IMG/VR virus record: IMGVR_UViG_3300012953_003199
Coordinates: 1 to 35,759 of that record
Origin: a virus
Taxonomy: Duplodnaviria > Caudoviricetes
Length of the DNA stretch: 35,759 nucleotides
Direction: 5' to 3' (one strand)
The notes under the pieces were generated by a model. It worked only from the letters and a program-made list of their open reading frames with translations. It searched no databases and was not told where the DNA came from. Numbering within the stretch: the first letter of the stretch is position 1; every line of letters starts with the position of its first letter. Made by a program: the position numbers and the translations under genes. Positions 4,101 to 27,600 of the stretch are shown in pieces.

Positions 4101-5437
4101 AGAGGTTGTAATTCAGTTTCATAGTCTACAGATGGTGCAGAACTTGCACCTGTACTGTTATAGTAAAGAGTACCACTATTCAATAAACCATCCTGTGTCG
4201 TACTGAATTGCATAGGATGACCATCAGTATGATGTGATCCAGGAGAGTTAGTAGGATCTGATTGATCCCATTTAATTAAATAATTTGCTTGTACCTTAAT
4301 ATTTTCTGGTGAGAAATAGTATTGTCCAGGAACAAATGCACCAAATTCTGCAGCATCAGCACCAAAATCAATATAAAATATTCCGTTAACAAAGTTATAT
4401 GGAGCAGCACTAACTGTAAATGAAAATCCTGTAGATCCTAAGAACTTATCACCTTCAGCAAAATCACCACTGGTTGCTCTTAAATATATTCTTGTTACTT
4501 GATTTGTATTATCTTTTACTACTTTAGCAACTGTACCTTGAGCATTACCACCAATCTCATCTACAATTCTTCCAACTTCCACTTCCCCTAAAGTCTGATC
4601 AACTTGGTTGACCGTTAACATTATATTATCAAATTCTACTTTAATCTTCCAAGTAAATACCTGTAATTTACCCCAATCAAATACACCATTCTTTAAAGCA
4701 AACTCATTAATAGATTTACTTGATTGATAATATTGAATGTTACTATCAACTATAGTGTCATAGGCACTTGTATTTTTTATATAATCATACTTAACAGTGT
4801 CAATAGAAAATCCTACTGGAACATTACTAATAGCACCCCATTCTGGAGTATGTAATAATCCACCATTTGCTAATACACCAGTTACTTTATTTGTTTGTTC
4901 TTCTCTTGCTCCAGGATTAGGTACATCTTTACCACCCCTGTAAATAAATTTTTGATTAAAAGTTCTATCGACTAAAGGACCACCACCAGGAATTCTTTCT
5001 GTTTCAAGTGGAGTTGGTTTTGGATGATTGTCAGCAACAATCGTAAGTCTATCAGTCTTCTTAGGAGGAGTATCACTTGTTAAATCAAACGTAGCAGTAG
5101 TAGGAGAGTTTGGATGTGACTGCCATATTTTATTAACATCAAATGATGCTACTACATTTGGTGTTTCATCTTGAGGAACGATCTGTAATCTTAAAGGATC
5201 GTATCCTCTTCCTCGATTTAAAACCCTAACATGAATTATCTGCCCTGAATCATTATCGATAATAGGGTACAGTAATGCTTCAACATCTGGAGTACCACAC
5301 CCTTGTATAGTTAACCGAGGGGGATCATCCGATGAATAACTATTACCACCGTTTGTTACCTTTACCGCACGAACTCCAAATATCTCATCAAAAATTGGTT
5401 CAATTACGGCACCAGAACCAGGAACTGTTCTTGCCAT
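1169..5437 (-). CDS. Large virion structural protein (1422 aa) with Gly-rich GxGY repeats, a split YHYH-like domain and cupredoxin-like domains
   Basis: YHYH-family motifs HSKILGMSYDGYPIYGPWGY, LDEYNGKFAVTPEYPNG and PVYPY. Type-1 Cu-like motif GHPM...YYYCKNHRYM. Several GxGY repeats. Sits in the baseplate cluster. Confidence 0.75.
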   Translation of the reverse strand: MARTVPGSGAVIEPIFDEIFGVRAVKVTNGGNSYSSDDPPRLTIQGCGTPDVEALLYPIIDNDSGQIIHVRVLNRGRGYDPLRLQIVPQDETPNVVASFDVNKIWQSHPNSPTTATFDLTSDTPPKKTDRLTIVADNHPKPTPLETERIPGGGPLVDRTFNQKFIYRGGKDVPNPGAREEQTNKVTGVLANGGLLHTPEWGAISNVPVGFSIDTVKYDYIKNTSAYDTIVDSNIQYYQSSKSINEFALKNGVFDWGKLQVFTWKIKVEFDNIMLTVNQVDQTLGEVEVGRIVDEIGGNAQGTVAKVVKDNTNQVTRIYLRATSGDFAEGDKFLGSTGFSFTVSAAPYNFVNGIFYIDFGADAAEFGAFVPGQYYFSPENIKVQANYLIKWDQSDPTNSPGSHHTDGHPMQFSTTQDGLLNSGTLYYNSTGASSAPSVDYETELQPLFIMNSDETNRIYYYCKNHRYMSGYEGDEGYMILDPTVEAHTPDNDYYITDFFATGPDYSRHVDGHSKILGMSYDGYPIYGPWGYNASGAVAREVSGYRLRTGTEVPGARPEITTATTVTYVVTVSGGQFLFDGARPNFLDLKRGKTYVFQQNDSSNDDQPSVNHLLLSTTENGWHSTGNPSDLGNTAYLYTGQGVKYYINGSEVTYTSYISGFQLATTREMRYTVPVDAPPALYTFGYSTTNLGVRTVQGGYILGDLTQDYIWDTSTGTLDEYNGKFAVTPEYPNGTFAYFMTEDGSGNPVYPYAIGLKYYGVPIFEGSTVPQMPSVFPEGAEGEIVLSTTTPGQLSYIKMTQKGDNYFGSATARILGGGGTGGTGNPVVQTVTGLSLSSVGRDYATPPTLIFEGGGGQGAQGAAEIDKLGKVSSISVVNPGEYYQEPPYILVTGGGGLGAKARATISQGAITGIEVIEPGVGYTSSPNIIFTKLVNLKRKTRARQAFNSSAIYLTGLVKALGASDTNVYVDSTDAYPGSGKIIVGTETISYTSKSAGKFSGLTRGVNFNYDQRIVLDAGQNNADGSSNYKFNVGDRVIRKVENSGNKVAKVYDWDPISRALLVTFEIDELAYIDGGLPSTQDAIVQFDAGVADSAPSGFDPHVIVDSTGSVITTLTVPISSIQDKAFQDLIPAGPPVGDGIPDLVNTGTDFLNQISLDGGIHTSLYGIEETLGGQNTTLFQVGDNIKDADIPFKYATVTGAGGLSDGVDHTALVKVYVELGSDNNGQNYGVDELVTGAISGVRGTCVSWDPSNGILTLKDITPYNTGNINVGIAGYLYEFSHDSSIIDFVIQDSGQNYSATPLLEIQGPTSPATESRNSETIAWGGAMGDIQATATVNMTTAADQVASINITNGGYGYKQIIDNSYKAHPFILFTDASNNISDGKFASTPNGAIAQAILGGEKITGNAGASYRIKRIEYQTTVRS

Positions 5438-5442
5438 TTATA

Positions 5443-6666
5443 TTAAGCTACGTTAATTGTGCCATTCATGGCAGCGTGTAATGTACACTGATAATACAGT
5501 GTAGAAGGAGCGTCCATAGGGACAGTCCAGTATAATACTGTAGTTCCACTACCACTTTGACCAGTAGTGTAAGGAGTTCCAGCTAAACCCTGTGTACTCT
5601 GAATCCTAAATGGATGACCACCACCTTGAATTGAGTTATCAAATGCGTATGTAAATCCTTTATATACCGTAAAGGCAGGATCATTTACAACACCATTGAA
5701 TCCTGGTCCAGAGACTGTATAATCTCCAGTTCCCACTGCATTCAATTCAAACCAAATAACAGGACTCCTTGTTGGTTTCCAAAGAGCACCGTCATAGAAT
5801 AACGAATCTCCTTGAGTAATACCAGCAACGTTACTGTCAGTTAGACCAGCAAATGACGTTGTTAGAGTTCCAGAGAAATCGACTGTAAGTGTATCTCCAG
5901 CAACAGAAGTGGTAATATTTGTTCCACCAGCAATAGTCAATGTATCTGTTTGAGTATTTGCTGTTGTATTACCAGAGTCTCCAGCAACAGTAGCAAATAG
6001 GTTAATAGATGCAATACCAGATGCATCATCACCAGGTTTCCACTTACTTGCAGTAGAATCCCATTTTAAAACTTGATTATTAGTAGGAGCAACAGTAGTT
6101 GTATCAACGTCTACTAAATCATTAGCACCTGAATATTGTGTTAAAAGTTTTGCTTTTGTATTACCTACACCACCAGCAGTGATATTAATATTAACATAAG
6201 GGTTGTCATCACCACTTATAGTATAAAAAATTCCTCTATAGTCTGCCTCAGCAGGAGCAACACCTGAACTTGCATATTCGTTTTTATACTTTACTTTAGT
6301 CGGAAAATCGATATCTCCCGTCGTACCATTAAAACTATTAGTAATACCCCCAACACCGAGAGTAAGATTTCCTGTTCCGTTGGTAGCGATATTAATGTTT
6401 CCATTAGACGTTGATATGATAGAACTTCCATTTACGTCTAAGTTAGCAGTTAAATTTGTATAATCTGAAGGTAAAAATGTTGATCCATTATAGCGTAAGA
6501 CCTGTCCCGTCGCAGGGTTAGTGGTATTAACAGTTAATGTTGTACCATTACCTAACGCGGAATAGACTTCTGTGAAATTGTCGTTAATCTTGTCTCCACC
6601 CGCACGAAGGGTATCACCCGTATTATCGTTCGCAATAGTTCCAAGACTTAATGATTGTTTAGCCAT
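5443..6666 (-). CDS. Baseplate-attached fibre/connector with a gp9/gp10-like N-terminus and a C-terminal cupredoxin-like domain (407 aa)
   Basis: The N-terminus GTIANDNTGDTLRAGGDKINDNFTEVY is the T4 gp9/gp10-type motif. Fibre-type repeats GQVLRYNG, NQVLKWDS..KWKP and LFYDGALWKP. C-terminal GHPF...LYYQCTLHAAMNG. Confidence 0.75.
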   Translation of the reverse strand: MAKQSLSLGTIANDNTGDTLRAGGDKINDNFTEVYSALGNGTTLTVNTTNPATGQVLRYNGSTFLPSDYTNLTANLDVNGSSIISTSNGNINIATNGTGNLTLGVGGITNSFNGTTGDIDFPTKVKYKNEYASSGVAPAEADYRGIFYTISGDDNPYVNINITAGGVGNTKAKLLTQYSGANDLVDVDTTTVAPTNNQVLKWDSTASKWKPGDDASGIASINLFATVAGDSGNTTANTQTDTLTIAGGTNITTSVAGDTLTVDFSGTLTTSFAGLTDSNVAGITQGDSLFYDGALWKPTRSPVIWFELNAVGTGDYTVSGPGFNGVVNDPAFTVYKGFTYAFDNSIQGGGHPFRIQSTQGLAGTPYTTGQSGSGTTVLYWTVPMDAPSTLYYQCTLHAAMNGTINVA

Positions 6667-6686: not shown

Positions 6687-6694
6687 TATTTATA
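6687..6694 (-). promoter_or_regulatory. T4 late promoter TATAAATA
   Basis: Perfect TATAAATA on the minus strand, overlapping the gp7 stop codon, 20 nt upstream of the ATG at 6666. Confidence 0.8.
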
Positions 6695-9600
6695 AAGGTG
6701 TTTCAGGGTCTACTGCTTCTTCTCCATATAGACTTAAGTCTGGAGCAGTCCAATCATCAGGAACTGATGTTTCAACAGCAATAGTTGGGTTTGAATATCC
6801 AGAACCAACGTTACTAACTTCAACTCCAGCAACACCAACCAGAGCTCGTATAGAACCCTCAAATCCAGATATAGAGTCAATCCTTACGGATGGTCTGGTA
6901 GTATATCCAGATCCACCTGAGGTTACTTGAACATCTCTGATTGTACCAGAGGTTAGATTTGCATTTGCAATCGCACCTGAACCGAATACAGATCCAAGAT
7001 AATCGAAGGTGATTAATGAGTTGGAAGATTCAATAACAGCAACTTCTCTGTCTGAAGTCTCACCTTGGATATCAATAAAGTCACCTGGTTCGACTGGAGG
7101 TACGACCTCAGCAGCGTCAACGTCTGCCTCAGAACCAACGTATGAGAATGCAACGAATGTTGAACCTACACGTGGAATCTCAGAGAATAATATCCTTGAA
7201 CCAACAATCTCAAATCCAATTCCAGGTTCCTGTATAACACCATTCAGTGAAACGATGATGTTATTTTCTGGACGTATGGTGGAAGATTGTACACCATCAG
7301 TTAGCGTTAGTGAGTAGAATACGTCATTACGCTTGAGGTTGAATGATTGACGTAAGGAGTCGAACTCGAATGAAATATCATCCAACTGTCTCAACTTACC
7401 TACGTAGAATCCTGTGAAGGACGCACCTAAATCTGGTGCCTCTTGGAACTGAATAGTATCAGAGAACGCTGTATATGCGTTAGATGCACCTGGAGGTTGT
7501 AGAATACCATTAATGAATACAAGTAAGTGTCCTGCAGGATCTGGTAGGTATGGAGTACCATTCTGCTGAGTTAACTTGAAGTTTGTAGTAGTTCCATCAA
7601 ATCCCTTGAATGAACGCTTAACACGTGCCTTAAGATCTACGATTGAATCAATAACTGATGCGTATCCTTCTGGACCTTTAATAGAATCCTTACCATCAAA
7701 TGTACCAGCGATACTTGAAAGATAAAGTCTCTTATTAATACCAACTGTTCTAATATCTTGTACGACAGCAGCTGCAGCACCAGCAGTAACAACCTTAGTG
7801 TTAATACTTGCGTAACCAATTGGGTTAGAATTACCAAGACCATAGTCACCTACAACGTCACCGTTAGTGAAGGTTCCAAGATACTCCTGCATGTAAATGT
7901 AGTTATTATCAAGATCAATAGAAGTGATAATACCGTAAGTATTCTGATCTTGTATACCAGATACAACTCTGTAAAGTCTATTACCAACAGTGAAGTCAGT
8001 AAGACCACTTAGGACTGTAACACCAAGTCTTATATAACCATTAGATGCAATTCTTGCACCAACGCCTATGTCAAGACCAGCGTATTTAACAACTTCAATA
8101 TATTGTCTGGAAGACTCTGGATAAACAACCGCAGTAGTTTCAAATTCACCAGTAAGAGTTGCAGTATCAACTGTTAGAGTACCACCAGTATTATCTAATA
8201 CAGCAGCCTCTCTTCTAAGGAATCCAGTAGGAGTTGCTGTAGCACCTGAAGTATATCCCTTGAATGGAACGTTATCTTCAAATACACCCTTAAGATCAAT
8301 AACATGAATTCTATCTTCAATAGCACTGATTTGAGCAGTTGTTGAGTTTGTATCACCAACAATGTTATCAGTAATTGCCCAAGGACCATTAGTAATCTTT
8401 ACATCAAGATACTTGTAGTTGGCATCAGTCCAGAAACCATATACAACACCAGTAATTGAAGGTGCACCTTGCTTCTTAACAACCTCACCCATAGTGTAAG
8501 GACCATCTGTAATATCACCATCAATTCTAAATCTTTGGAACACTTGTACTATTTTGCCTTCATTCAAGGTAAGATTTTCAAGTTCACCGTAGGTGTTACT
8601 TAATAAACCGTACATGTAATCAGCATTTTGTATTCCACCACCAACACCTTGAGGAATTGATCTTGTTCCGTATGTCTTAGTTGGTGTTGAAACACCGTTT
8701 ACACTAATGTAATTGGTGTAAGATGTATCAACGGTTAACTGTTGACGAACAATATCAATACAATACCTAACAATTCTACTTACTGAATCTGAATTATAAT
8801 GTGCAGCAGCAGTATCATAGAATGCTTTATAGAAACCAGAGTTAGGTGATGGTGAAGTTAGACCATTATTAAGTGCCTGAGACATATAAGTCTCCATCAA
8901 ATCTAAAGCATAATTCTTAATATTGTACTCAGAGTCAGAATAGAAGATCTTCGCATCTTGAGACTCATATGGGTCTAAAGTATTCTTATTAAGTTTAGCA
9001 CCCCAGACATAAATTCCATCACTATTATTACCAGCATATGTTTGAGCACCAGAGGCATTCTTGACATATACTTGTGATCTTACTGCTGCGAAACCGAAGG
9101 AGAATGTTATGGTGATATATGCTCTATACCAACCATCTCCAAGAGGTACAACACCATAAGCATCACCTGTAACACCATTTTGAGGTGTGAATAGTGAACC
9201 AACAACACCTGTGTCAAGTGCAACATCGAAGAATGCATTCTGAACACTGGAAGTACCATAGTTCAATGACATCATTACACGAGCGTTATCATATTCACCC
9301 TTCTTAAGGAATACTGAATATGTGTATTGCTGTGTAGGTGATGTACCTGAAGCACCCTCGTCAAATCTTTGATTGTCTGCGTCCCACTTAATAGAAGAAT
9401 CATCAAACGTATCATATGCAGATAGGTTATAAACTCTATGAATTGTATGATCTGAGTTAGTTGAAGAAGCAATTAACTTATCAGCAGTTAGAGTTCCATC
9501 AGGAGCAAGTAAAGCATCATCAGTAAATGAAACTTCAGTACCAGTCCAGTTAGTTGAGAATTGCTCTGGGTTAGTGAGTAAGTTAGTACCAGCAATCTGA

Positions 9601-12600
9601 CCACTTACATTAGAAGTAATAAGTCTTGCACTACCAAGGGTCTTAACATTAGTAACACTATCGTACCACTTATACTCAAGACCAATACCAGCATCATCAA
9701 TAGTTGCAGTGGCACCAGAATCATTACCTGTTAATACATCTCTATCCTTCCATTCTGTACCAGTAACAATACTGCATACAAAGAATTCTGTATCGATATT
9801 AAATTCTTGAACTATTGCAGTTCCACCACCATCGGATGTAACTGTTTCACCAACCTTGAAGTTACCAGTAATCTCACTAATAGTAATATTACGTGCAACT
9901 GAAGTCTTAGTCATATCAGTTGTGATGATATCATGAACTGTATCATCTACAATCTGATCAATGAATGTATTATAAACCCAAGCACCAGAACCAAACTGTG
10001 AATTAACTAAGGTTGTAATCTCTTCTTTATAGTAATTTCTATTATAGAGTAAGTTCTTAGCAGCACCTCTACCTTCCATCTTAGAAGGAGCAAGAATAGT
10101 AACTGCAATATCAGTTAACTCTTCTAATCTACGTACAACATCTTCAATTGCTACTGGAGATAACGCATCTGTATAAGGAACTTCATCTGTATGTTGAGCA
10201 ACATATTGTTGTGCAGTTTGAGTTCCATTAAGAGCAACTAAACGATTTCTAATTGCATGCTCACCAATAATCTTGATCTGTTCGATACCATAAACTGTTG
10301 CTAAAAGTTCAGTTTCAATATGATTTAACTGTCCAGCAGAAGTTAAGTAGTTTTCCATAGCAGCAATTGTGCTATTATTACCACCTGTCTGAAGGTCAGA
10401 AATCATACCAAGAATGATTAATTTAATATCTCTCTGACATGTACCTTCACCTAAAGCACCACTTGGATAAGTATGTGCATTATAGTTTACACTATTCAGT
10501 ACATAAGTAAATTCTTGTGTAATTAATCCTGTAATCTCCTCTGCCATATACTTCCTGTTGAAGTATAATCTATCAGCAGCAATCGCATAATCATTAGATG
10601 TAGGAGCAATAATATCATTAACTTGAGTTACTAAAGTATCGATAGCACTCTGAACGTTTGCACATCCACCACCATCTTGAGTAATACCCCAATCACCAAC
10701 AATAATATCATCAGTATTGTCATAAGTTAGATCACCCAAAATTGCTTGCTTCATGTAGTATGCAAGACGATTATGTGCATAGATTGACTGGAATACTTGT
10801 AATCTAATGTGTAGTAGTACATCATTAGTACCAAGATAGAACTTAGCAACATTGGTACTGTTGAGGTTACCACCATCTTCAATATCCTTACAGAACTGTT
10901 CAAGAAGTAATGTTAAGTCAGTCTTACACTGTAAAGTACCATCTGTGCTACCAGCTACGTTACGAGGCATCTCAGTAACAAGATCTGGATATAATGTAAG
11001 CATATCGTGAGATGTCTTATCTACGATAGGACCAGTATTTGAACGAATTAATGCAGCAGCATCTCTAAATCTGTTACGTGTAGTCTCATCAATTTGATTA
11101 GTAACAATGATATCGTTAGTAGCATCATGATAAGAAACTGGGAATGGAACCTCATAGTATGCACTAACTTTACCACCAAGGAATTCATGCTTAGGAGTTA
11201 ACTTAGTAACAGTTGCTAAATGATCTATAGCAGGAGTTAGATTTGCCTGATTGACAGTATCAACTAAGATATCCATTAGGTTATCAATAGTTGTGTATAC
11301 ATCTGTACAATCTGACCAGTTGTAATCTAATACTGTAACAGCATTATTTGCTATAGAAACTAACTGATGAGTATTTCTAATCTTCTTAACAGCACCATAA
11401 TTAGCACTTACAAATGTATGTACAGACTGTGGTAAGAAGGATACAGCGTTAGTTGTAGCACTTACAAATGTATGAGTATAGTCACCACCAGAACTAATTA
11501 CTGCTCTCTTGATTCCATTAGCAGTTGCAGACTGGAATGCGTGAGACATAACGTTAGTTGATGGTACTGCATCAAGAACCTGAACATCAAATGTGTTTGT
11601 AGTAACTCCAGAAATAGTAACCCACTTACCACTAACAGGATCACTCTTTCTTGGATAAGTCTTAGTTACAGTGTTACCATCAAGAGCACAAGTAAATGAT
11701 AGTGAATTATCAGCGATCTTAATCTTCTCACCGTTGACAAATCCATGATTTGCAACAGTAATGGTCATTACACCTGTAGTTGGATTGTAAGCAGCATTAG
11801 TTGCTGTAAAGTCGCTATTAGCACTAACGAATGTATGAGCAGTTGTGTTAGAAGATGTACCAACGTTAACTGTAATTGTGTTACCTGTTACAGCAGTGAT
11901 ATTAACAGCATCGTTATATGCTGGATCGTCAGCAGATGCTCCACCTTGACCATTTGCACGAGGATAAGAATGGTTAGAACCATTACTATCTTGAGCACAT
12001 GTAAAGGTTAAAGAATTATTTGCAATTCTGATAGATGTACCAACTGTAAGATTGTGATCACCAATTGTTAGAACTAAGACACCAGAAGCAGGAGTAAAGG
12101 ATGCAGCAGATACTTCATGACCAATAATAGGTGAAGTACCAACATTAACTGTAATTACACCAGTCTTTCTTCTAAGTCCCTTTGTAGCAAATGACTTGAA
12201 TGTATGAGTTGTTGTATCAGAAGATACACCTACGTTAACATCAAATGTATTAGTTGCTACATTTGATATTTGCATCCACTTATTACTATAAGGATCAGTT
12301 GCTCTTGGATATGCATGATCTGTTTGATTACCATCAAGATCACATGTCATGGTTAAAGCACCATCCAACATCATTACCCAATCACCATTTGACCATCCAT
12401 GATTAGCAAGTGTGATTGTCATAGCACCCGATGCTGGAGTGTATGAAACATTAGTTGGTGTAGCATGTGTATGTCCTACATGCTTAACAGGAATAGACTT
12501 AAGGTTGCCATAAGGATCTGTTGAACGAGGATAAGTCTTATTAGAAGATCCTCCGTCCATTGTACAATTGAATGTTAATCCATTATTTGCAATTGTAATA

Positions 12601-15600
12601 CTTGATCCAACACTCATACCGTGACCACTACCAACTGTTAGAGTCATATCACCAGTATAAGCATCATAAGTTGCTGCAGAAGGAGTAAATGTAGCATTAG
12701 TTCCTGCAGGATTTACATTAACAGTTATTGTTCCATCTTGCCTCTTAACACCACCAGAAGTAGCAGATACAAATGTATGAGCAGTTATATTAGAAGAAAT
12801 ACCAACATTAACTTCAAATGTATCAGCAGTAATAGCAAAGATGTCTAACCATCTGTTAGAAGATGGATCAGTTACTCTTGGATAAGAATGGTTAGAACCA
12901 TTACTATCTTGAGCACAAGTAAATGTTACTGCGTTAGTATCAAACTTAACTCTATCACCAGCAACTAATCCGTGTGAAGCAGATGTAATTCTTAAAATAC
13001 CAGTTGTAGGTTCATAGTTAGCAGTTGAAGGTGTAAGACTTGTAGTACCAACAGAAGCAACAGGTATTGGTTTTGCAGAGAACTCATCAAAATTAGTACG
13101 AGGATATGTCTTATTAGACTGATTATTATCCATTGCACAAGTAAATGTCAATGAATTATCATCAATAGTGACACTATCATCATCTGTTATATCATGTTGT
13201 CCAATAGTTAATACTAAGTTTCCGTTAGCAGGATCATAAGTTGCAGCAGTTGGAGTATATGGTTGATCAACAGTATCAGCAAGTGACTTACCAATGTCAA
13301 CAGTAAATGTATTTGTTGTTGCCTTTCTTACTCTTAAAGCAGAGTTGTAAGCAGGATCTGTAATACGAGGATAAGCATGATCTGTTCTCTTACCATCAAT
13401 ATGACATCTGAAGGTTAATGAATCAGGAGCAAGTTTAATTGCTGTACCCATCTTATGAATACCATTTGATCTTGCAGATACAAATGTATGAGTATAGTCA
13501 CCACCAGTACTTACTACAGATCTGGTAATACATCCAGTAGTAGCAGATACAAATGCGTGAGTTGTAGTATTAGTTGGTGATGTTCCCTGTAGAACATTGA
13601 TAGTAAAGGTATTTGTCGTTACAGCAGTAATTGGAACAAATCTATTACTAATTGGGTCTGTAGATCTTGGATAAGCATGGTTTGTTGCATTGCTATCCTC
13701 AGCACATGTGAATGTTACTCCACCATCAGCAATCTTAATATGCTCCCCAACCTTAAATCCATGATCAGCAACAGTCAATACCATGTTACCAGTGGATGCT
13801 GTATATGAAACAGTTGATGGAGTGTAAGTATTGTTAGCATCAATGAATGTATGATCGTAGTTACCACCAGCAATCAGACCACCAGAAAGAGCAGAAACAA
13901 ATGCGTGAGTAGTAGTGTTGGAAGAAGTATTAACATTCAAAGTAATAGTTCCATCCTGAACCTTAATACCGTTAGATGTGGCACTTACATAAGTGTGTGC
14001 AAAGTCACCAAATCCAGTAATACCGACATTAACATCGAATGTGTTAGTTGCTGAAGCAACAATAGGAGTCCATTCGTTAGCAACTGGGTCAGTAGCACGA
14101 GGATAAGTATGGTTTGTTGCGTTGTTATCTCTTGTACAAGTAAAGGTTAATGAATCAGCGTCAAATTTAACTTGACTATTTGCCTTCAATACACCATTAG
14201 TTGTAGCAGATATGAATACATGAGTAGATTGATCATTTGCAATACCGATATTAACATCAAATGTATTTGTAGTTACATTACCAATAGTCAACCACTTGAG
14301 GTATGAAGGATCAGTAGCACGAGGATATGAATGTTGTGATTCATGATTATCCTTATTACAACTGAATGTTAAAGCACCTTCAGTAATTAAAATTCTGTCA
14401 CCATTAGTATATCCATGACTTGATTTTGTCAAAGTCAACATACCAGTTGCAGGAACATATGCAGCAGCAGTAGGTGTAATCTGTGAAGCAGCAGTCAATC
14501 CATGACCGTTACTTGTGATTTGTAGAACACCAGTGGTAGGAGCATAGGTAGCACCTGTAGCAGTCTTATTAGAAGTACCTACAGCAGCAATTGAAATTGG
14601 AGCATCATATGCTCTATCTCTCTTCTGCTTAATGCAGTTAGTAACAGCAGATACAAATACATGAGTAGAAGTATTAGTAGAAGGTATATTCTGTAATACC
14701 TGTACTGTAAATGTGTTTGTAGTTACAGCAGAGACTTTCAACCATTTACCGCTAACTGGATCAGTTGATCTTGGGTAAGTATGGTTAGTCTGATTATTAT
14801 CTAACTGACATGTAAATGTGAGTGAATTATCATCTAACTTAATCCAATCACCAACTCTAACACCATGAGAGTTAACTGTGAATACTAAAAGACCTGTTGT
14901 GCCACTATATGTCGCAGTAGATGGTGTGAACTCATCTATAAATGGTCTTGGATAAGAGTGGTTAGATGCATTACTATCTTCAGCACATGTAAATGTTAAT
15001 GCTCTATCAGCAAGTCTAACAGTCTGACCAACTTGTAAATTATGTGAACCCAGTGTTAATACTAAGTTACCATTTGAAGGATCAAATGTCGCATTGGACA
15101 TATCATGCTTCTCAGTAGGTGACTTACCTACATCAATTGAAATAGATCCATCTTGCTTAACAATACCACCTGGATATGCAGACTTAAATGTATGAGCAGA
15201 TTTATCTGGAGATATACCAACATTAACAGTAAATGTCTTATCAGTCTTAGAATCAATTCTTAACCATCTTCTATAGAATGGATCAGTTGATCTTGGATAT
15301 GAATGCTCAGTCTCATCATTATCTTTAGCACATGTAAATGTTAGAGACTTCTCAGCAATTCTGATCTTATCACCAACAGAGTAACCGTGCTTATCAGATA
15401 GAACACTGTTATTTCTTGCACTTACGAATGTATGAGCATAATCACCACCAGTTGTTACAACTGCTCTTGTAACGCAGTTGGCAGCAGCAGAAACGAAACT
15501 ATGAGTTGTAGTATTTGTTGAAGGTACTACATCAAGAACTTGGATAGTGAATGTATTTGTAGTTACTGATTGTATATCAATAAACTTACTGCTAATTGGG

Positions 15601-18600
15601 TCAGTAATTCTTGGATAAGTGTGATTAGTAGCATTGTTATCCTTACCACAAGTGAATGTTAATGAATTATCAGCAATCTTAATCTTCTGTCCTGCTAACA
15701 TTCCATGACCAGCAACTGTAAATGCTAATAAACCGTTTGTTGGGTTGTAAGTAACAGAAGTTGGAGTTAAAGTACCTGCTTTAGCAACAAAAGTATGAGT
15801 ACCAGCAGTTGCATCGTTAGCAGGACCAACATTAACAGTAATTGATGTTGAAGTTACAGCAGTAATTGTCGTCGCAGCATCATATACAGGGTCAGTTACT
15901 CTTGGATATTTGTGCTCAGTAGCATTACTATCCTTAGTACATGTGAATGTTAAAGACTCAGGTTCAAATCTAACAGATGTACCAACGGTCAAATTATGAG
16001 CACCGATAGTCATCACCATATCACCTGAAGTAGGAGTATAAGTGACTGCTGTTGGATTGAATGATACTAAAGGTGAAGCACCAACATTAACATCGAAGGT
16101 GTTAGTTGTTACATTTGCAATGTTTATAAAATCACCACTTAGAGGATCAGATGATCTTGGATAAGGATGAAGAGTAGCATTATCATCCATATCACAAGTA
16201 AATGTGATTGCACCATCTTCAATCTTAACCTTATCACCAAGTACCATTCCATGATTAGGAATAGTTAATGTTAATACACCTGATTTTGCAACATATGAAG
16301 CAAGTGTAGGTGTAAGATTAGTACCAGAAGTAATTGTTAAAGCACCTGTAGAAGGAGTATAACTTGCATTAGTTGCTGTACTATGAACACCGTCACTTAC
16401 AATAGGAACAGAATCATTGTAAATTGGATCTGTTGTTCTTGGATAAGTCTTATACTCTGTAGTACCACCCATAGCACACAAATACTTCAGAGAGTTATTT
16501 GCAATCTTGATGTTGGTTCCTACTTCTAAACTATGATCTCCAATACCTAACTTTAACCAACCAGTTTCAGGGTCGTAAGTAGATGATGTTGGAGTGAAAC
16601 TCTTGATTGGTGATACACCAACGTTAACATTGAATGTGTTAGTTGTTACACCAGATACTGCTAAGTATCCAGAACTTGCTTCGTCGGATATTCTGGGATA
16701 GGTATGTTCAGACCTATCTTGGTCCATACTACACGTAAAAGTGAGTGAGTTATCGACAAGTTTGATTCTATCGCCATTTGAAAGTCCATGACTATTACTC
16801 GTAACAGTAAGTACACCAGTATTCGCTACGTATGCTGCATTAGATGCTGTAAGAGACGTTGCACCTACAATACCATGAGAAGACTTGGTTAAGGTTAATT
16901 CTCCTGTTGCAGCGTCATATACTGCATCTGTAGGAGTAAGTTGTGTGAATGAAGTTGTTGTGGAATCAGTAATAGTTGTATCAGTTACCTGAGTTAAACC
17001 ATGATCACCTTGAACTTCCCAAAGAGTATTGGTTCCAATATACTGAACCATTTCTTGAGTTTTCTGGAATGCCCAGATACTCTCGGTAACTTCATTCTTA
17101 ATTTCTTTTAATGAAATAGGAGTAGTAGTTCTATCAACATAGAATGCAGAAGCATCCCAGATATTACTATTACTACCATTGCGGATGTCACTTACAACAC
17201 TCTTCAATACATCAACAATATCATCAGCACAGTTAACAGATCCACCCTTAACAGTGAAGTTAGGGAATCTCTTCTTCATCAAATATACAACTTCTTGAGA
17301 AATGAAGTCTAAGTTAGATAATACTAAATCTCCAGCATTGATATATCTCTGAGTATTCTTATTAAATCCGTTATTGGCAATACCAACATTAACAGTAAGT
17401 GTTGTGCCTGAGACTGCAGTGATAGCAAGGGTTGTATCGTATGCAGGGTCAGTTAATCTTGGATATGTATGAGAGGTTTGATGATTGTCCTTAGCACAAG
17501 TAAAGGATAACTTGTTAGCACCGATCTTCAAAGTATCACTGGTTGTGAAACTATGAGAACCAATAGTTAATACCAAGTCTCCTGTATTAGGATCATAGGT
17601 AGCATCAGTTACATCTTTCTGTACACTATTAGCAGTTATGGTAATAGCATTAGTTGAAGTACTACCATTATAGATGTGCTTACCAGCAACATCTCTTACA
17701 GTTGCCAGAATAGCATCATTATTAAAGAATTCACCTTGAGTAAATCCTTCAACACCAGACCAGTCATCAATATAATTTACACCATCATTACCATCACAGT
17801 GAAGTAATAGTTTTGTATTAGCATCACCTTGGAATATACCAGCAACAGGAGTAAATGCACCAGTATAACGGTTAGTTGTAGAAACTCTTACCTCATCAAC
17901 ATGTCCAACAAATCCATTAGCACCATTCCAATCAGCACCAATTCTTATTGGTTTAGCAACATAAGTTGTACTGTCAGTACCAGTTCCAGCTTCAACACCA
18001 TTAATATAGATCTTACCAGTTGTACTTGACTTAACATATGCAATATGAGTCCATGTATTAGCAGAAATTGTTGTTGCACCTGAAGTTACAAGGTCAGAGT
18101 TGTTAACATTTACACGAACTTGACCTGCCTCTAAGTATAATCTAAATGCAACTTCATTAGCACTACTTGCTCTTGTATCAAATATATCAGCAGTACCACT
18201 TACTGAAGCAGTAGCAGGACGGATATACATTTCAACAGTAAATGCACCAGATCCAAATGCTATTTCATCAGTAGATGCATTAACAATATAATCAGCAGCA
18301 GCAAATTCTAAAGATGCTGTTCCAAACTTCTTCTGTGCAGTATCGATAGCAGCAGCATTTTCAAAAGTAAAATCATAATAATCTGCACCACTTGCTTGAC
18401 ATCTACCAATCTTACCAAGATATACAATATTACGTGCTTGGTTAAATCCAATAACCTCAGCTTTAGTATCTCTAGTTCTAATTACTTGTCCAGTATTAAA
18501 GAATCCTGTACCAAGACTATCAGTGAAACTTAGTTTTCTAACTCTTCCATCTTCTCCAGCAATGAAATCACCATTACTATTACCATATTCAATCTTATAG

Positions 18601-21600
18601 TTACGAATATTCTCATTTTCTGCAAGAGTTCCTACTGCATTATCATAAGGAATCGTATAGTTATTGATACGCTCATTAGCAGGGAAACTTGAGTCAAAGG
18701 CAGTAGAGTTATCAGTAAAGTTAACAACACTGATTTGTGACTTAGAAATATCGTCTAATACAACGTTTGGATAAGTCTGAGAAGTAATTCTGTTGAATAG
18801 TAAACCAAAGAACGATGAACCTTCAGATATATTGACCTGACCAATAAATTCTTGAGTTGTAGGATCTTGATATGCTGCAGTTGCAGTAACTGTAGCAACA
18901 ACACCAGATGATGCACCAAGAATAACATCATTCAATTGGATATCAAATAAACCAGGAGTTGACTTATAAGTACCAGCAGTCTTACTTAGGGTTAATGTAT
19001 TAGTAACGCTAATGTCTGTACCGTAAATTGGAGTATTCTCTTGTACAGATTGAGCAGTCGTACCTAATTGTGCTCTTGTTACTGCAAGAGTTGTAGATGA
19101 AGATCCATCAGTAATAGTATCAACTCTGAATATTTCAGAACCAAACTGATAGTTCTTAGTAGCAGTGAATGTACCAGCAGGAACTGGACCAGCAGCACCA
19201 GATGTAGGTACTACTTCAAATGATACTGTAGAAAGACCGATTGTATAACGAACCTTAGCAAGAGGAGTTTCAGCACCAGATTCAAGGTTAATTTGCTCAA
19301 CTTTTGCAGTGTCTCCAGTTAAATTGGTTACTTGCTCACCAAATGTGAATAAACCAATGTTAGATACTGCAGTATTAGTTGCTAAGTTAGCATTGAATCC
19401 TGTAGCAGAAACATTACATAATTCACCAATAATAAAGGTTCCTTCATTAATATAACCATTGATTGTAGTACCAACAACTGTTGTTACAGTTAACTTTGCA
19501 CCAGATGATATACCAGTTAATATATTACCTAATGATGGGTAAATACCACTCTGGTTAGTAAAGGTAAATGCAACTGTAGACTTCTGGGAAATCGATATAT
19601 TTGCATACTTAACACTTGCTGGAGGTTGTGGTGGTTCAGAGAATACAATAGAGACTTGCTGAATACTAAATGCAGTCTTAGGATTCTGTACAACACCATT
19701 CAATACAATCATCAACTGGTTTGCGTTTGCAACAACGTTAGAACCATCAACAGTTAGAGGGAATGATATTCTTTCTCCATCGAATAATGTAGAAATATCA
19801 TCAACACGTTGTACAACAGAAGTAAGAATATCCTCAGAAGATGTTAGTCTCTTCTGTCTGAATAATACCTCAGTATTGTTAAAGTCAGAGTAGATTGGTT
19901 CAACAAGAGCAAAGTTCTGAATATTAGGAACAATTGATTCTTGAGCAAGTTCAACAGACTTAGTTAACTGGAAGAATGTCTCTTTGTTAGGAACAAATCC
20001 ATACTCATTAAGGTTTAATTCACCAAATACCTTAAATGATGCAGGGTGAACGTTCTTGATAAGGATCTCCTTCCAATCGCTGATAGAAACAGCAGATTTA
20101 ACAGCATAGGAGAAGTCCTGATAATAATAAGAGTCTTGAATCTTTTGAATAATTTCGGAAGGTTTACCAACATCATCGATAAACTGACCTGTTGTTTTGG
20201 TTATAGAACCAATTTCAAGAACACCTTTAGCAATCTTCAGATCACTGATAGTACCTGAAGACTTAGAAATAACACCAGTAACTTTTTCATTTTCAGCAAA
20301 TGACCCAGTATAATCAACAATCTTAATAATACGAGGACCAACCTGCCAACCAGAGTTTGTAGATACATATCCACTTGCTGTAGCAGTTTCAAAGGTATCT
20401 CCTTGGTATATTAATTCTCCTTCTAAGAAGGTAGAAGTGATAACATTAGCAGTAGCACCACCACCGAATGATTCAGTTAACACACTCTGACGACCTTCAC
20501 CAGCGTTAACGAAGGAAAGAGCATCACCAAGAGCAGCGTTAGAAGCAGTAATAGCAAGTTTTAACTGATCACCTTCTAATGAGTTTGCAGCACCAGCAAT
20601 AGCATAGTAAGTAGTAGAAGCATTTAATCTACCAGTTGCACCAGCAGCAAGAGGGAAATCAGCACCATCTCCAGTATCAGTTACTGTAACTGTTACGGCA
20701 GCACCATTTGTAATACCATGAGGATAAGCAAACTGTAGTAATCCTAAGTCAAGGTTAACAACATAGTTGAATGATGACTTAAGACTAATAGTTGGTGTAG
20801 ATGAATATCCAGCACCAGGATCCTTAACAATAATTGTGTCAAGACGACCATTCTTAATGAATGCTTCAGCAACAGCACCAGTTCCACCACCACCTGTAAT
20901 TACAACAGCAGGAGGTAAAGAATATCCAGAACCTGGGTCGGTAACTGTAATGCTTGAAAGTATACTTGTAGATGTTAACTGGGCGTTAATCGGGAAGGTA
21001 ATCTCAGGACGTAAAGTATAGTCATGAGGATAATCATATCCAAAGTTATTATTCTTAAGTTTTTTGATTTTTCCGACATTTGTACCTTTAGTAAAGATAG
21101 ATGCACCTGAACCAGCAGAAGGAATAACAACTACAAGTTCAGCACCAGATCCAGTTAAACCAGATCCAAGAATACCAGAAATAGAGTTAATATCAATAGA
21201 TGCAGTAGTATATCCTTTACCTGGATCAATAACTTCAACTTTCTGTATCTGACCTGGAATAGTAGTACCTTCATCATCAGTACCATTATCAACAGTAATA
21301 GAAACTAATCCACCTTCTCCATCACCAGCAATAGGAACATTATTGTATTCTCCAACAGCATATTCAGTACCTGGAGCATTAATTTGAATTCTTTCAATCT
21401 TTCTTGTCGATACAATACCTGTAATAACTGGTAACTTAGTATAGAATCCACCAGAGTTAACAATACGGATATTATTAATAGAACCAACAGCTTTTAGTGA
21501 ACTTGTACTATAAGTTGTCCTACTTACATCTGCAGCACCTTCTGGCTCATTAAGTAGAGGGAATTTGAATATATCAGGTCCAGTAGTAATAGTTTGACCA

Positions 21601-24600
21601 GCAGTAGAACTAATCTGGAATGTACCCTTATATGGAGAATCTACAACATCTAAGTAACTACCAGGAATTACAGGAGAAGTATCTCCAGTTCTTGATGGGT
21701 CAAAGTAATATGAAATATTTGTAACAACACTCTCATCAACTTTCAATTTAACTGTAGGTGTAGGTTGTCCTTGACCAGTTACACCAGGAGTACCAATTCT
21801 TTCAATAGAGTTGAATGAATATTCCAACTTATAAAGGTTATCCTTAGCAAATGATAGGTTACCCCCAACCAATGAAGAGTGACTTAGGTCAAACAGATAC
21901 TGGTGACCATAATACATCTTCAACACAGGAGACTTAACAAATATGTTAACATTACCAGGAGTGGTAGTCTCAGGATCACTTATTGCTGCTGATGGTAATT
22001 TGTAAGTAAATTCAAGTGAACTTACAACAGTATCAACAGGGAATGCACCATCATACTCATCATATACAACACCACCAACAGTACGTGATGGGTTACCATC
22101 AACATAAAGCATTTGTGCTGCTTCAAGGTAATGCTTAGTAGCAGTAATTACATAAACTTCATCACTATTAGCAACCGCAGTTACCTGAAGAATCTTAATA
22201 AGATTTGCAACTAAAGTGATCTTCAGAACACCAGTTAAATTAACGATTGTTGCTTGAGAATAATCAGAATTATAAGAAATATCGCCTGAATTAATTGTAA
22301 CAACAGATCCGACAATATATGGTGAACTACCAGAGACTTCATCAATTCTTATTGAATAATCTGCATCACTATATGGTTTGAATGTTGCAAATGTGTGTAG
22401 ATTATTAGCTCCACCAACTTCTAAAGGATAACTTGAAAGAGGAATGATAAAGGTTCCAGGAGTTTGATTAACAACCTGTGCAAAGGTATATCCTATTATC
22501 TCATTAATATCATTAGGAATTGGTCCAACAATGTTATAAGTAGACTGCTCACTAAACTGAACTGTACTTAATTGACCAGTATTAAGATCATCTGACCAAA
22601 GGTTATTATTAACAGCAACGTATATCTTATTATTATCATTATCAACTCTAATGATATAACCGCTATTTTTGAATGTAGATCCTGTATAAAGTTGTAATTT
22701 AGCACCAACTGTGAAATTAAATGCCTGATTAATAGTAAGAATCTGAATATTATCAATCTTAACAGTATCAGTAACTTTAAAGTAATATCTGTCTTTAACT
22801 ACAGCAGATACTTTAAGTTTCTGTGAACCTGGAGAAGGAACAGTAGCAGTTCTTGAACCCCAAATATCCTGAGTATAAGTTAGATTCTCAGTATCCTGAG
22901 ACATCGTAGTAGTTGTATCATCAAAGTCAAGAGTCTGTAAACCAGCATCACCTAAACTATATCCAGTAGCAGAAACAGTTATTGCAGAACCAGTAACAGG
23001 AGTTACAGCAGTTCTAACAAATCCTACCTTAGTATTAGTTCTCTCACTATAAGTTCCGATTCTTCCAGATTCAGCATTCTTATCAACTTTAATACCCCAA
23101 CCAACATAATCAATATTATCATATTGATTCAGATAATTAGTAAACCATGCATCATCTACCCAGTCAAATGTCTGACTATAACTTGCAGTTGGTGGTAATG
23201 TTACAACGTCAGTAGGAACTGTAGGAGTTACAAATCTATTTCTTAGTCTAATATTATCAACATAGAACTGTCCTTGCTTAGACTGAGCAAAGTCAGTAGC
23301 ACCACTACCAAAACCAACTTGGTTACCGATATATAGATTCTTATTACCAAGAGAAGTACCTGATAATGTACCAGTAATTACTGCAATACCATTAATATAT
23401 GCTTTAAATTCATTACCATTCTTAGTCAATGCTACAAACTGCCAAGAATTGTCAGCATACATGTTTGTTTGAGATGATGACTGACCAGAACCGTTTATAA
23501 GTTGTGTTGTACTATTAGTAATGACTAATTGCAATTCTCCACTGCTATTATCATATCCTAACCATAGACCACCAGTAGCATCTCTTGCACCACCAATACC
23601 ACATAGAGTTTGAGCAGTTTGAGATAAAGTTTGTGATTCAGTAGCATTCTTGTAGACCATGAACTCTAAAGTCCAATCTCCAGCAAGTTTAGTTCCTAAT
23701 GTAGCACTTGGAAGACTTAAGTAAGAATTAACCCAAGTAGCATTAGAACCTGCAGGATTGTAACCATAGATCTTAGCAAGGTTACCTGTATAGGTTATTG
23801 CATTAGTAGCACCAACGGATGTCAGAGTATAATGACCTGTTCTATCAACTTGCTCATTATTAGCAAAATCAAATATACACTCGTTTCTATTCCACTGAGT
23901 TTGACCAAATACATGAACATCACCTGATTCATCAACATCAAGTGCAAGTGCAGTTACACCTTCAATATTGTTTAAATTGAAGTTATTAGTTGTATGATTC
24001 TTGATCTTACCGTCATAACCAATCTTAACTGTATCTACAGTTGTCTGAGTAGTTACATTATCTTTTCTTGTAAATGCTATGTTTAGATCACCAAATAAAT
24101 CAATTTCAGATGAATCTACTACATGAACTTCTCTACCTGGAGCAAGATAACGATAATTCCAGATTAAAGCACCATCAGTAGAATTAACTTTACCAACCCA
24201 GAAACTATCTATAGTTGTATCATCACTCTTCATTCTGCAAGAAGCAGTAAGATAAATTTCCTTAAATTCATCAATACAGAGAGTAGAATCTAAGAATGAG
24301 TATGTTGCATTACTATACTCTTTAATCCATGCAATTTCAATAACACTTGTACCAATAGTTGCTTTACCTACACACTGATTGATATCCTGAGAACTGCTTG
24401 TTGATGATACTTCCATTGTGAAGTATAGATCAGTACCATCAATAATCAAATCAGTAATTTTTTCATTAGCAGTTGCTGAAGCTAACTTTCTCTTAACTGA
24501 GAAATTACCAGTAGTATCAATAGTAGCAATGAATGCATCATAAGGTGCAGCAGAGTTAGTATTAGTGTAACCACCAATAACATAACGACTATCTGAATAT

Positions 24601-27600
24601 TTCTTAATTGCAGTTACATTATCAGAACGAGTAGCACCAGATATACCAGCATATGCTTTTTGGAAACCTAATGTTGCACTAAGACCGTTTTCTGCCTGAA
24701 CATACTTACAAAGTATAATATCAGGGTTATATGCATCAAGTAAACTACTATTAGGTTTATTATTACCAACTACCCAAATATTATCTCCATCTACATACAA
24801 TCTTTCAAATTCTACGTATTTTAGACCAGATGCACTCTCTAAAGTTTTCTCCCACTCTTTAACACCTGTAGCAGATAACTTCGCTACAAATCCTACTGTA
24901 TTACCATCAGCATCTAATGTTTTACCACAAGTGAATATTTCTTTCTTAATATTAACCTTACAGTCATTAATCTTGACATAATTATTATTTTCAATCTTAG
25001 AAACGTAATAATCTGCCTTCTTGTAAATCTGAGGATGACTTAGAATAACACGAGGATTAGCAGTATACCCAGATCCAGAGTTAGTAATATTAACAGTATC
25101 AATAGCACCAACAGAACTAACAACCGCTTGTAAAGCACCACCGCTTCCGTCTCCATCAATAACTATTGTTGGAGGAATTTCTTCATTATATCCAGATCCT
25201 GTTTGACTAATGACTATTTGCTCAATACCTTTGAATTGACGAACTTTAAATGTTTTGTTCGTGTTATCCATGATAGGTGTGTAATCAATAAACACACTGT
25301 CGCCAGCTATCAAATTATGAGGTACATTTGTCTTTAATGTACCATAGTTACTTCCACTTACATTCTCAAAACTATAAGTTTCAACTGTTTCACCTTTAAT
25401 ACGTGAAACACGAGCAGATACACCATCACCATCAGTATCTGTATTGTCAAATACCAGTCTATCATTGACCTGATAGTTAATACCAGGGTTCTCAACTGTA
25501 AATCCAGTTACCGAGGCATCTTCAAACTTAGTAATAGTCTCAACTTCAATGTCAACCTTAGAGTCAAATTTAACTGTGGGGAAGTAATCAAAGAGTTGTA
25601 AAGGTGACTCCTCGAACATCTGTTCTGGATCATCTATCTCATCTTGACTTATTACACCGTCTCTATTTTCGTCTTCTGCATCAAATAGGAGTATTTCACC
25701 TGCTTCAGTAGTCAATGCATTAGTAGATGCGTTTGGAGTCCTTGTAACGTCAATATCAACGTTCTCATAAGGGTCTCTATAACGCACAACACCTGAAGGA
25801 ATATTCTGTTGTGTTGCATCAGCAACAAGGTTCCATTTATCAACAACTGAATTGAAACTTGGTCCTAAAACATAAGGGAATAGTGGATTACCATCTTCTG
25901 TAGAGTCAATAGTAACAAAATAGCAATATCTACCAGCCGTAAAGTCTGGTGTCTTACAGAAACGACCATTATACTGATCTAAATCACCTAAACCAAAGAC
26001 ATACTCATAGTCTTCTACAAAATTACCAGCAGTTTCATCATTTAGTAAAGGACCAGCAGTTCTTGATGGATATGGGTTAGTTGTTGCATCATATACTAAA
26101 TTAGTCTTTAATCTATAAGAAGTATTCAGTTTAGCAATAGAGGATGCTTGATTAGTTGGGTCAGAGTAACCATAAGGACCATAAATCGGGTTACCATCAA
26201 ATGCCCATCCTATAATAGGAGAGTGTGCTAATTGAGTTTCTTGCTCCTTAATCTGTTGTGAAGCATTTTCAAATAAGTTATCACCAAGAATATATCTTAA
26301 TTTCTGAGGATTGGATAAGTGAGCATACTCACCACCATATTGATTGTTAAATCCTTCAAATACAGCACCCTTAGCATCATCAAACGTTGATGTTGCTTGA
26401 AGGTTATAAGTCCATTGGAATACATTAGGTGTAAAGGTAGCACCTTGACCAACAGATGTTAAGTTGATAATTGTAGTACCTTGAACATAGTTGATACCCT
26501 TATTAACAATAGTGATACCAGTAACTCTACCAGCATTTTCACCATCAGTATCAATAGTAGCACGTGCAACAGCACCAAATCCTTGACCTTGAATAGCAAC
26601 TTCAGGTGCGGTAGTATATCCAGATCCAGCAGAAATAATAGCAATAGAAATGATTCTACCATTAGTTACAATCGCTTGAGCAACAGCACCAACACCAGAA
26701 CTCAATGTTACAGATGGATTTGAGGTATATGAAGCACCACCATTTGATATAGCAATACTTTGAATTGGACCACGAACAGATGCTGTACCTGTTGCACCAG
26801 TTCCACCACCACCAACAATAGTAATTGAAGGCTGGGAAGTATATCCAGAACCGCCTTGATTAATCAGTATACTAGAAACAATACCTTTAGTAATAATAGC
26901 AGTTGCAGCAGCACCAGAACCGCCTCCACCTACAATAGAGACCAAAGGTGAAGATGAATACCCAGAACCCCCTGCAGTGACTGTAACTTCAGAGATAGAA
27001 CCATCAACAGTTACATTTGCAGTTGCACCTGAACCGCTACCACCTGCAATAGTAATTGCTGGAGGTGAAGCAGCATCATATCCAGCACCAGCATTAGTAA
27101 TGTTAATTCCAGTTACAGCACCAAATGTTTTAGATAAAGTTGACTTATAAGACCAAATTGATACACCATTAACCCAAGTTCCAACAGGACCAGAAGTAAT
27201 CGCATTCTTAGTCGAAATTGTAGTCGGTAATTTAGGAAATCTGTTTAATTTACGTTGGTTTCCTGGAAGAAGTGCAGATCCTGGGAAAGGACCAATCTTA
27301 TAGTTAGGAATACCTGTAGAAGCAACGTAAGTGTTAGTAGTATCAAAGAATGAGTTTTGTACGTTAGTTGTATATGAACCAATAGCATTTAATACAGCAC
27401 TGTTATCTGACTTACCCTTATTAAGGTCAACAGATACAAGAATATTACCCTGAGGTATAACTGTTGCAGGTTGAGGAAGATTATACTGGAAAACATACTC
27501 GGAATCCCTTGAAGTGACTAAGAAAGTTCCGTTATAGATGATTGGGTTAGCACCATATACAGTTACCTGATCTCCAACCAACAATCCATGAGGATTAGCA

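Follow-up and report, generated by a model that had tools for sequence, protein, structure and literature searches.

The closest described case of one domain family inserted recursively into itself is Si3 of the cyanobacterial RNA polymerase β′ (RpoC2), in which HABAS/sandwich-barrel hybrid domains interrupt one another to give eight domains at six levels (PMC13114784). Across six representatives Si3 holds 8-10 domains, and the level count seems to include the host, since the published figure shows depths 1-5 plus a host in grey (PMC13114784); Si3 is also partly domain-swapped (PMC11515920). A 2026 survey of 2.7 million classified domains uses this case, with its eight domains and six levels, to illustrate extreme nesting, and neither "phage" nor "viral" occurs in its text (PMC13114784). 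In phages, very large cyanophage genes have been proposed to be fusions of gp7 with parts that resemble fibres (Sullivan et al. 2005; PMC1079782). Small barrels are also known from phage proteins: in K1F the barrel binds polysialic acid and is a hotspot of host discrimination (PMC12632334), the inserted barrel of KP34gp57 assists capsule binding (PMC10653864), and the FCCH barrels of siphovirus tail tubes point to the outside (PMC13576161). Here we analyse a stretch of 35,759 nucleotides from a virus of the Caudoviricetes (IMG/VR record IMGVR_UViG_3300012953_003199, positions 1 to 35,759; hereafter the window), in which a giant gp7-like protein contains 18 units of a single domain family inserted inside each other to depth 7, forming what we call the tree.

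As in Si3, units of the same family interrupt each other in the order A1-B1-C-B2-A2, a single small β domain family is inserted into itself, and some hosts are branching nodes that carry several guests. The two cases differ in that the phage tree comprises 18 units at seven levels without counting the helical domain that hosts it (in relatives up to 30 units, depth 10 and 42 topologies), the fold of its unit appears to be another one by structure search, and its protein is likely a virion component, whereas Si3 is partly swapped. Recursive same-family insertion was thus already known, and the phage case is larger, deeper, apparently of another fold and variable between relatives. A literature search of open-licence papers and bioRxiv found no description of nested domains in phage proteins.

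The tree is a nested array of 18 complete units

The unit, about 103 residues long, was described by a profile of 105 columns built from 123 distinct uninterrupted units. When the protein was segmented without any nesting rule, the columns at which its pieces stop and resume already followed a last-in-first-out order (26 to 28, 22 to 23, 57 to 58, 71 to 71). An exact nested parse of residues 4490-6420 then gave 18 units, each covering 100-103 of 103 columns, to a depth of 7 (Table 1). The tree occupies residues 4523-6390, and 1,824 of these 1,868 residues lie in match columns. Seven of its units are uninterrupted, and units 1, 3, 8, 13 and 15 host several guests each.

The original prediction, made from the letters alone, had read this region as 18 units of four ordered parts (A to D) nested like brackets to depth 7, and the parse confirms that order. 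With a tolerance of 3 or 6 columns, no balanced order arose in 300,000 permutations of all 35 pieces or in 300,000 others that moved just the 17 resuming pieces; the piece borders in this test were taken from the parse itself, which somewhat favours the observed order. Twenty shuffled sequences that were parsed again scored 1,205-1,377, against 1,468 for the real one. The spacing of about 3.4 kb that had been noticed between parts A and B of the root unit was also recovered, with A1 at 16854-16940 and B1C1 at 13260-13451, and D1 (11337-11372) is 5.5 kb off. Two details refine the original reading: units 6, 17 and 3 are cut inside part D, whose last strand resumes after the guest, and insertions in part C fall in its hairpin turn.

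As a control, five of five artificial head-to-tail arrays made of the seven uninterrupted units of the window were read by the parser as tandem, and natural tandem arrays in other proteins were likewise reported as tandem. Misassembly is excluded because the units of the window are only 24-60% identical to each other and because two independent contigs (L002 and L004; 92-94% amino-acid identity in the tree region, synonymous divergence, dS, of 0.25-0.30) contain an identical tree.

Table 1. Coordinates of the tree units, of the helical repeats and of the genes around them (positions in the window).
Feature	Position	Pieces	Strand	Depth	Remarks
Unit 1 (root, whole tree)	11337..16940	16854-16940, 13260-13451, 11337-11372	-	1	Hosts units 2, 13; nested parse
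Unit 2	13452..16853	16599-16853, 13452-13502	-	2	Hosts unit 3; nested parse
Unit 3	13503..16598	16383-16598, 15108-15152, 13827-13865, 13503-13517	-	3	Hosts units 4, 8, 12; nested parse
Unit 4	15153..16382	16323-16382, 15153-15392	-	4	Hosts unit 5; nested parse
Unit 5	15393..16316	16062-16316, 15393-15446	-	5	Hosts unit 6; nested parse
Unit 6	15447..16061	15771-16061, 15447-15461	-	6	Hosts unit 7; nested parse
Unit 7	15462..15770	uninterrupted	-	7 (deepest)	Nested parse
Unit 8	13866..15107	14931-15107, 14568-14621, 13866-13949	-	4	Hosts units 9, 10; subtree modelled
Unit 9	14622..14930	uninterrupted	-	5	Nested parse, model
Unit 10	13956..14567	14481-14567, 13956-14171	-	5	Hosts unit 11; nested parse, model
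Unit 11	14181..14480	uninterrupted	-	6	Nested parse, model
Unit 12	13518..13826	uninterrupted	-	4	Nested parse
Unit 13	11382..13259	13038-13259, 12690-12728, 11382-11429	-	2	Hosts units 14, 15; nested parse
Unit 14	12738..13037	uninterrupted	-	3	Nested parse
Unit 15	11439..12689	12465-12689, 12120-12155, 11439-11486	-	3	Hosts units 16, 17; nested parse
Unit 16	12165..12464	uninterrupted	-	4	Nested parse
Unit 17	11487..12119	11811-12119, 11487-11501	-	4	Hosts unit 18; nested parse
Unit 18	11502..11810	uninterrupted	-	5	Nested parse
Lone 19th unit, outside the tree	17382..17681		-		Probable circular permutant; a D-like part precedes A and none follows C
Helical repeat 1, main part	16959..17348		-		Phycobiliprotein-like; host of the tree
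Helical repeat 1, last helix	11283..11330		-		Bears Cys; displaced 5.6 kb by the tree
Helical repeat 2	10635..11081		-		Phycobiliprotein-like; no insert in the window, 1-6 units before the last helix in some relatives
gp7-like giant protein	6690..30506		-		7,938 amino acids; between the gp6 and gp9 homologues; YHYH, LamG and baseplate-wedge matches
gp6 homologue	30512-32545				PF21379/phrog_219; upstream of the giant gene
gp9 homologue	5443-6666				PF07880/phrog_677; downstream of the giant gene

Trees of different sizes occupy the same site in related phages

Comparison of nesting topologies among related phages, which had been proposed as a check, revealed from 1 to 23 units at the same site and 42 multi-unit topologies overall. 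With the flanks matched by BLAST, 28 loci carry at this site a single rooted tree of 1, 4, 8, 15, 16, 17, 18, 21 or 23 units with a depth of up to 10, and cultured phages have 1 (S-RIM8), 4 (Syn19), 8 (Syn30) and 11 units (P-SSM4) there. Over the 125 distinct clusters that do not touch the end of an open reading frame (ORF), to which the 42 topologies also refer, 1,021 of the 1,168 units are inserted in another unit, no top-level tree lies head to tail with the next (0 of 147), and trees reach at most 30 units and depth 10; near-identical phages inflate these counts, and clusters at 50% identity are less redundant. At 50% identity there are 721 clusters, and in the best 150 of them 153 of the 284 units sit inside another unit. 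Nesting is the rule in unit-bearing proteins, though not obligatory, because 50 of the 59 multi-unit clusters of this set are nested and 15 head-to-tail neighbours are present.

In trees of at least four units, 1,057 of 1,068 units keep at least 95 columns and two carry more than 20 extra residues, and the insertions cluster at six narrow sites plus a rare seventh. Unit 4, which is split by 310 residues in the window, is uninterrupted at the same tree position in five of the eight relatives compared (45-54% identity), a natural excision of the guest. Between phages at 50-60% identity, 11-14 of the 15-17 shared tree positions match each other best. A scan of 185,579 prokaryotic genomes returned three loci (one single-cell and two metagenome-assembled records), which are presumably phage DNA, and gave no evidence for a cellular family.

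Other arrangements were seen as well. Trees of 29-30 units and depth at least 10 (L058, L083-L085, L089 and L093-L095) are preceded by an apparent open half of a further, divergent host; depth 10 is a lower bound, because some trees seem to lie in such a further, unrecognised host. One protein of 4,764 amino acids (P0001) contains six separate four-deep nests, and in three others (P0012, P0019 and P0020) the units are mostly tandem. Upstream of the tree lies a solitary unit in circularly permuted order (D-A-B-C), which is weak in the window and clear in relatives L005, L033 and L035. At three loci (L023:8825-9448, L053:7275-7916 and L068:7742-8356) a D-A-B-C unit is a guest, and its host is split between the Cys motif and the Tyr-Pro-Arg motif.

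Structure prediction and residue couplings point to a branched fold

AlphaFold was run on the subtree of units 8[9][10[11]] (416 residues, 5132-5547 of the protein). The alignment supplied had 62 rows, all natural stretches, of which 14 cover the whole subtree and the rest units 10-11. Two-unit stretches cut at site c, which are misplaced on units 10-11, were left out, and L112, identical to the window, was excluded from the alignments and from the coupling analyses. The model reached a mean predicted local distance difference test (pLDDT) of 92.4 and a predicted template modelling score (pTM) of 0.82, with 412 of 416 residues at 70 or above and no stretch below 50. In it, the strand pattern does not differ between split and unsplit units, guests enter at columns that form loops or turns, and at the hairpin site the two strands of the host continue into the first and last strands of the guest. 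A structure search with this model recovered units 9 and 11 as separate barrels (model residues 58-167 and 208-312). Four of the 50 matches listed span model residues 1..416, the ranges giving first and last residue only, with 74-79 aligned residues and a root-mean-square deviation (rmsd) of 3.0-3.5; therefore, only the three-piece host 8 can be matched in them. Hosts 8 and 10, although split, are predicted to fold as single domains. The original prediction had proposed a branched fold, which the model of this subtree supports: its orphan pieces are ordered, the outer hosts fold and the uninterrupted units keep their own barrels. The opposite outcome, orphan pieces disordered or paired with neighbouring units and rejoined hosts that do not fold, was not observed in this one subtree.

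Couplings calculated from 1,039 rejoined hosts and from 798 uninterrupted units share 30 of the top 45 pairs, including the contact between first and last strand (V5-A101/I102). With couplings from uninterrupted units only, the nested assignment beat an exchange of tails in 746 of 888 pairs that lie outside the training set and whose guest is itself a host, a count that comes from related sequences and is not a p-value. The same comparison at the site before part D favoured nesting in 372 of 460 pairs, and among the host-guest pairs of the window, with close relatives removed from training, it did so in 16 of 17. When the three pieces of the root unit were given as separate chains to a complex prediction, they scored 0.45 against 0.02 for the best control, with a partner pLDDT of at least 65 and 92% contact agreement between runs. 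In a benchmark, 116 of 157 solved pairs and 2 of 215 mismatched ones attained such a mark, but at or below 0.60 only 18 solved pairs and both mismatches did so; the result gives weak support to the idea that the three pieces assemble together.

The unit resembles barrels of endosialidases and FCCH domains

The unit is predicted to be a β-barrel of the FCCH/endosialidase type. Its best fold match is the barrel of the phi92 endosialidase (Z 8.0, rmsd 2.1, 78 aligned residues), and the FCCH domain of ubiquitin-activating enzyme E1 (Z 7.7, rmsd 2.7, 77 aligned), the tail-tube domains (Z 7.2-7.6) and the K1F endosialidase barrel (residues 424-506, Z 7.0) are also matched, so that this type of match covers most of the unit (Z 7.0-8.0, rmsd 2.1-2.9, 75-80 residues). 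Riboflavin-synthase-type barrels are the other top matches, and no HABAS or biotinyl-lipoyl chain was found among the 50 matches listed. With the endosialidase barrels of phi92 and K1F (PF12195) and the barrel of KP34gp57 the unit shares a small inserted module of six-stranded type (Z 7.0-8.0, rmsd 2.1-2.2, 77-78 residues, 18-20% identity). Those barrels, however, occur as a single copy in an enzyme and are not self-nested, whereas the phage unit lies below the Pfam cut-off, has an extra Cys..Tyr-Pro-Arg hairpin, closes with a longer hairpin and has only a putative glycan-binding role. The FCCH domains of E1 and of the siphovirus tail tube (PF16190, PF08813) have the same barrel (Z 7.2-7.7, rmsd 2.6-2.9) but one copy per protein, and 13 of 13 phage units gave no Pfam match to FCCH.

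Other searches added the following. The nearest named Atlas cluster to the unit is E1_FCCH (score 0.92, 169 features). Among predicted viral structures the matches are cyanophage proteins, one of which, of 197 residues, superposes over 173 columns with an rmsd of 2.1. Foldseek against the PDB gave nothing meaningful (best template modelling score 0.15), and a sequence search of the PDB returned a single insignificant match (E 0.53), within the inserted barrel of the depolymerase KP34gp57. The most conserved residues of the unit are C43, G15, Y54-P55-R56, D59, H24 and H92. The near-invariant C43, H24 and H92 (H52 is present at 71%) lie on three different pieces of the unit, and a metal site that clasps these pieces together is possible.

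Genomic setting and the helical domain that hosts the tree

The window is a fragment of a T4-like cyanophage, and its order of gp6 homologue, giant ORF and gp9 homologue matches gp6-gp7-gp9 of P-SSM4. The likeness to P-SSM4 gp7, annotated as "baseplate wedge initiator" (orf080), includes gene order, orthologous flanks and its 11-unit tree at the same site; the available text of Sullivan et al. 2005 (PMC1079782) does not describe nesting in that protein. The giant protein matches the Pfam family Baseplate_wedge (PF23786) at residues 680-730 with 36 bits (cut-off 27). Further matches are to the domains YHYH and LamG and, in PHROG, to families of virion structural, baseplate and tail-fibre proteins. 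Every phage record matching the tree region (405 of 405) is labelled Synechococcus, Cyanophage, Prochlorococcus or Marine. Gene order, domain matches and the annotation of relatives as virion structural proteins suggest that the giant protein is likely located in the baseplate, and the tree would then be an appendage of the virion. A gene for a PAAR-motif protein (phrog_281; 34006-34557, minus strand) adjoins a baseplate gene. The gene after gp9 (1169-5437, minus strand) lacks a unit in the window and carries one at about residue 154 in five relatives (L011, L018, L020, L024 and L026), so the domain also moves between genes.

The tree had been placed just before the last helix of a phycobiliprotein-like repeat, and this is plausible because the repeat profile extends across the tree and finds phycobiliproteins in the PDB. 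When the tree was left out, the match extended from column 138 to column 149, while the score rose only from 24.5 to 25.9 bits. The profile of repeat 2 retrieved 40 PDB rows, 31 of them phycocyanin, allophycocyanin or phycobilisome entries, three smURFP, three near-infrared proteins and three unrelated; the best E value was 0.002 for smURFP, but Pfam gave no match for the helical repeats. In relatives, further units are inserted at the equivalent loop of repeat 2. At least three helical repeats resemble phycobiliproteins (repeats 1 and 2 and a third at 10233-10457, minus strand); the bilin-site residues Cys and Asp align and are, in repeat 2, invariant in 14 of 14 rows. A heme oxygenase gene is present in the same window (33279-33857). 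From these sequence features, the virion may carry bilin.

A model for the assembly and growth of the tree

In the model the first and last strands of the barrel lie side by side, as the coupling V5-A101/I102 also indicates, and a whole barrel could be plugged into a loop of another. Six or seven loops would take guests through linkers of 0-8 residues, and at the hairpin site the two end strands of the guest are modelled to prolong the host hairpin as a two-stranded stalk. Folding would proceed last in, first out, each completed inner barrel returning the next piece of the host to its open half. Together the grafted barrels are predicted to give a branched and fairly rigid body, which likely protrudes from the baseplate and whose many weak sites may bind glycans of the host surface.

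Recombination between paralogous copies would enlarge or reduce the trees by carrying an insert, together with its flanks, to the same loop of another copy, and selection would retain only balanced products. We infer this growth from three observations: in 169 of 386 cases a unit and its nearest paralogue within the same tree are inserted at the same site (mean 76 and maximum 97 after shuffling), whole subtrees distinguish relatives, and copies keep 60-83% DNA identity in stretches. The ratio of nonsynonymous to synonymous substitution rates (dN/dS) is 0.16 in the tree and 0.15-0.20 in the rest of the protein, indicating purifying selection.

Discussion

We give a probability of about 80% to the explanation as a whole, in which self-inserted barrels form a branched tree, likely on the baseplate, that may bind glycans. 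Its base, the nesting of 18 units at seven levels, is present in the sequence with near certainty. Ordinary tandem repeats with degenerate or partial copies, or misassembled repeats, could be suspected given that tandem arrays of the unit do exist in other proteins (15 head-to-tail neighbours), but the pieces sum to 18 complete units, no permutation out of 300,000 balances, independent contigs have the identical tree, cultured phages have nested trees and the subtree model folds all its pieces; that reading is refuted and keeps hardly any probability. The way in which the chain folds is less firmly established, and several results count against a clean tree. When couplings were used to assign D hairpins to the six hosts that are interrupted before part D, the nested solution ranked 495 of 720, and for six A parts it ranked 169 of 720; as far as the sequence tells, these short pieces are interchangeable and their pairings are not fixed. 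Only 4 of the 18 units (8-11) are well modelled, AlphaFold of units 13-18 without an alignment giving a pLDDT of 32.5. The barrel assignment itself is based on Z scores of which values below 8 are common by the search tool's own scale, E1 FCCH domains scoring alike (Z 7.7), and the Pfam cut-off was not reached (PF16190 in 0 of 13 units; PF12195, End_beta_barrel, in 1 of 13 at E 0.044). In a block-by-block test, the lone unit of three single-unit relatives matched the pieces of the root no better than other units did, being closer to units 13, 6 and 17. The rankings fit a chain whose short end pieces, the D hairpin and A strands, are exchanged between neighbours to give an interdigitated rod or a knot-free lattice. 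Pair 15>17 slightly favours such an exchange, Si3 exchanges elements between its nested domains (PMC11515920), circularly permuted D-A-B-C units exist, and the modelled subtree holds no insertion before or inside part D, the type behind the four closing D parts. Nevertheless, units 9 and 11 form their own barrels in the model and their host closes from both ends, most pairs at the site before D favour nesting, and the nested reading alone avoids crossing with linkers of 0-8 residues. We consider swapping unlikely, and the chain probably folds into a branched tree of mostly unswapped barrels.

The function of the branched tree is proposed with more reserve. Multivalent attachment to host-surface glycans, that is, adhesion, is suggested by analogy with the barrels described above, and we favour it as the function, at slightly less than even confidence. 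The dN/dS of the tree equals that of the rest of the protein and its tips are hardly more or less variable than its stems; a host-range arms race leaves no sign in this variation, which weighs against a host-range determinant, and in S-RIM8 one unit suffices. The lack of excess variation would suit a tree that folds as described and binds nothing specific, serving as a rigid, bulky spacer or shield that provides reach and protects or displays the LamG and phycobiliprotein-like domains. The most conserved residues of the unit could be purely structural, and the FCCH barrels of tail tubes are outward decorations (PMC13576161). The closest folds by rmsd are, however, glycan-binding barrels of tailspikes, and the unit recurs in proteins annotated as tail fibres, so a mere spacer appears rather improbable to us, if less so than swapping. 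A domain that multiplies by self-insertion in a nearly neutral way, and is kept since broken copies would misfold an essential baseplate protein, could also produce 1 to 23 units at one site and 42 topologies, and purifying selection is expected in that case too. Such accretion would have to bear the cost of 5.6 kb in a compact genome and of about 1,870 residues per protein copy, and subtrees could be lost cleanly, yet phages at 50-60% identity retain most of their shared positions; we regard it as improbable, a little more so than swapping. If the glycan-binding tree is correct, these proteins might be single-chain dendrimers: recombination would insert copies of a barrel, with its roughly six loops open to grafting, into one another, and each lineage would thereby build its own rigid tree with 1 to at least 30 glycan-binding heads on the baseplate. 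Such trees would be a natural alternative to trimeric tail fibres that evolves freely, and no deeper nesting of domains would have been described, a view that we offer tentatively and with somewhat less confidence than adhesion alone.

With 18 units at seven levels in the window and 30 units at ten levels in relatives, this phage family exceeds the extreme example of the survey. Unlike Si3, it offers a natural series of 1 to 23 units at one site, cultured isolates included. This series makes it possible to test how a chain folds if incomplete domains have to wait for as many as 1,800 residues, which changes in the DNA enlarge a nested architecture, and which role giant baseplate proteins have in abundant marine cyanophages. 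A barrel with six insertion loops is, in addition, a ready scaffold for the design of branched proteins.

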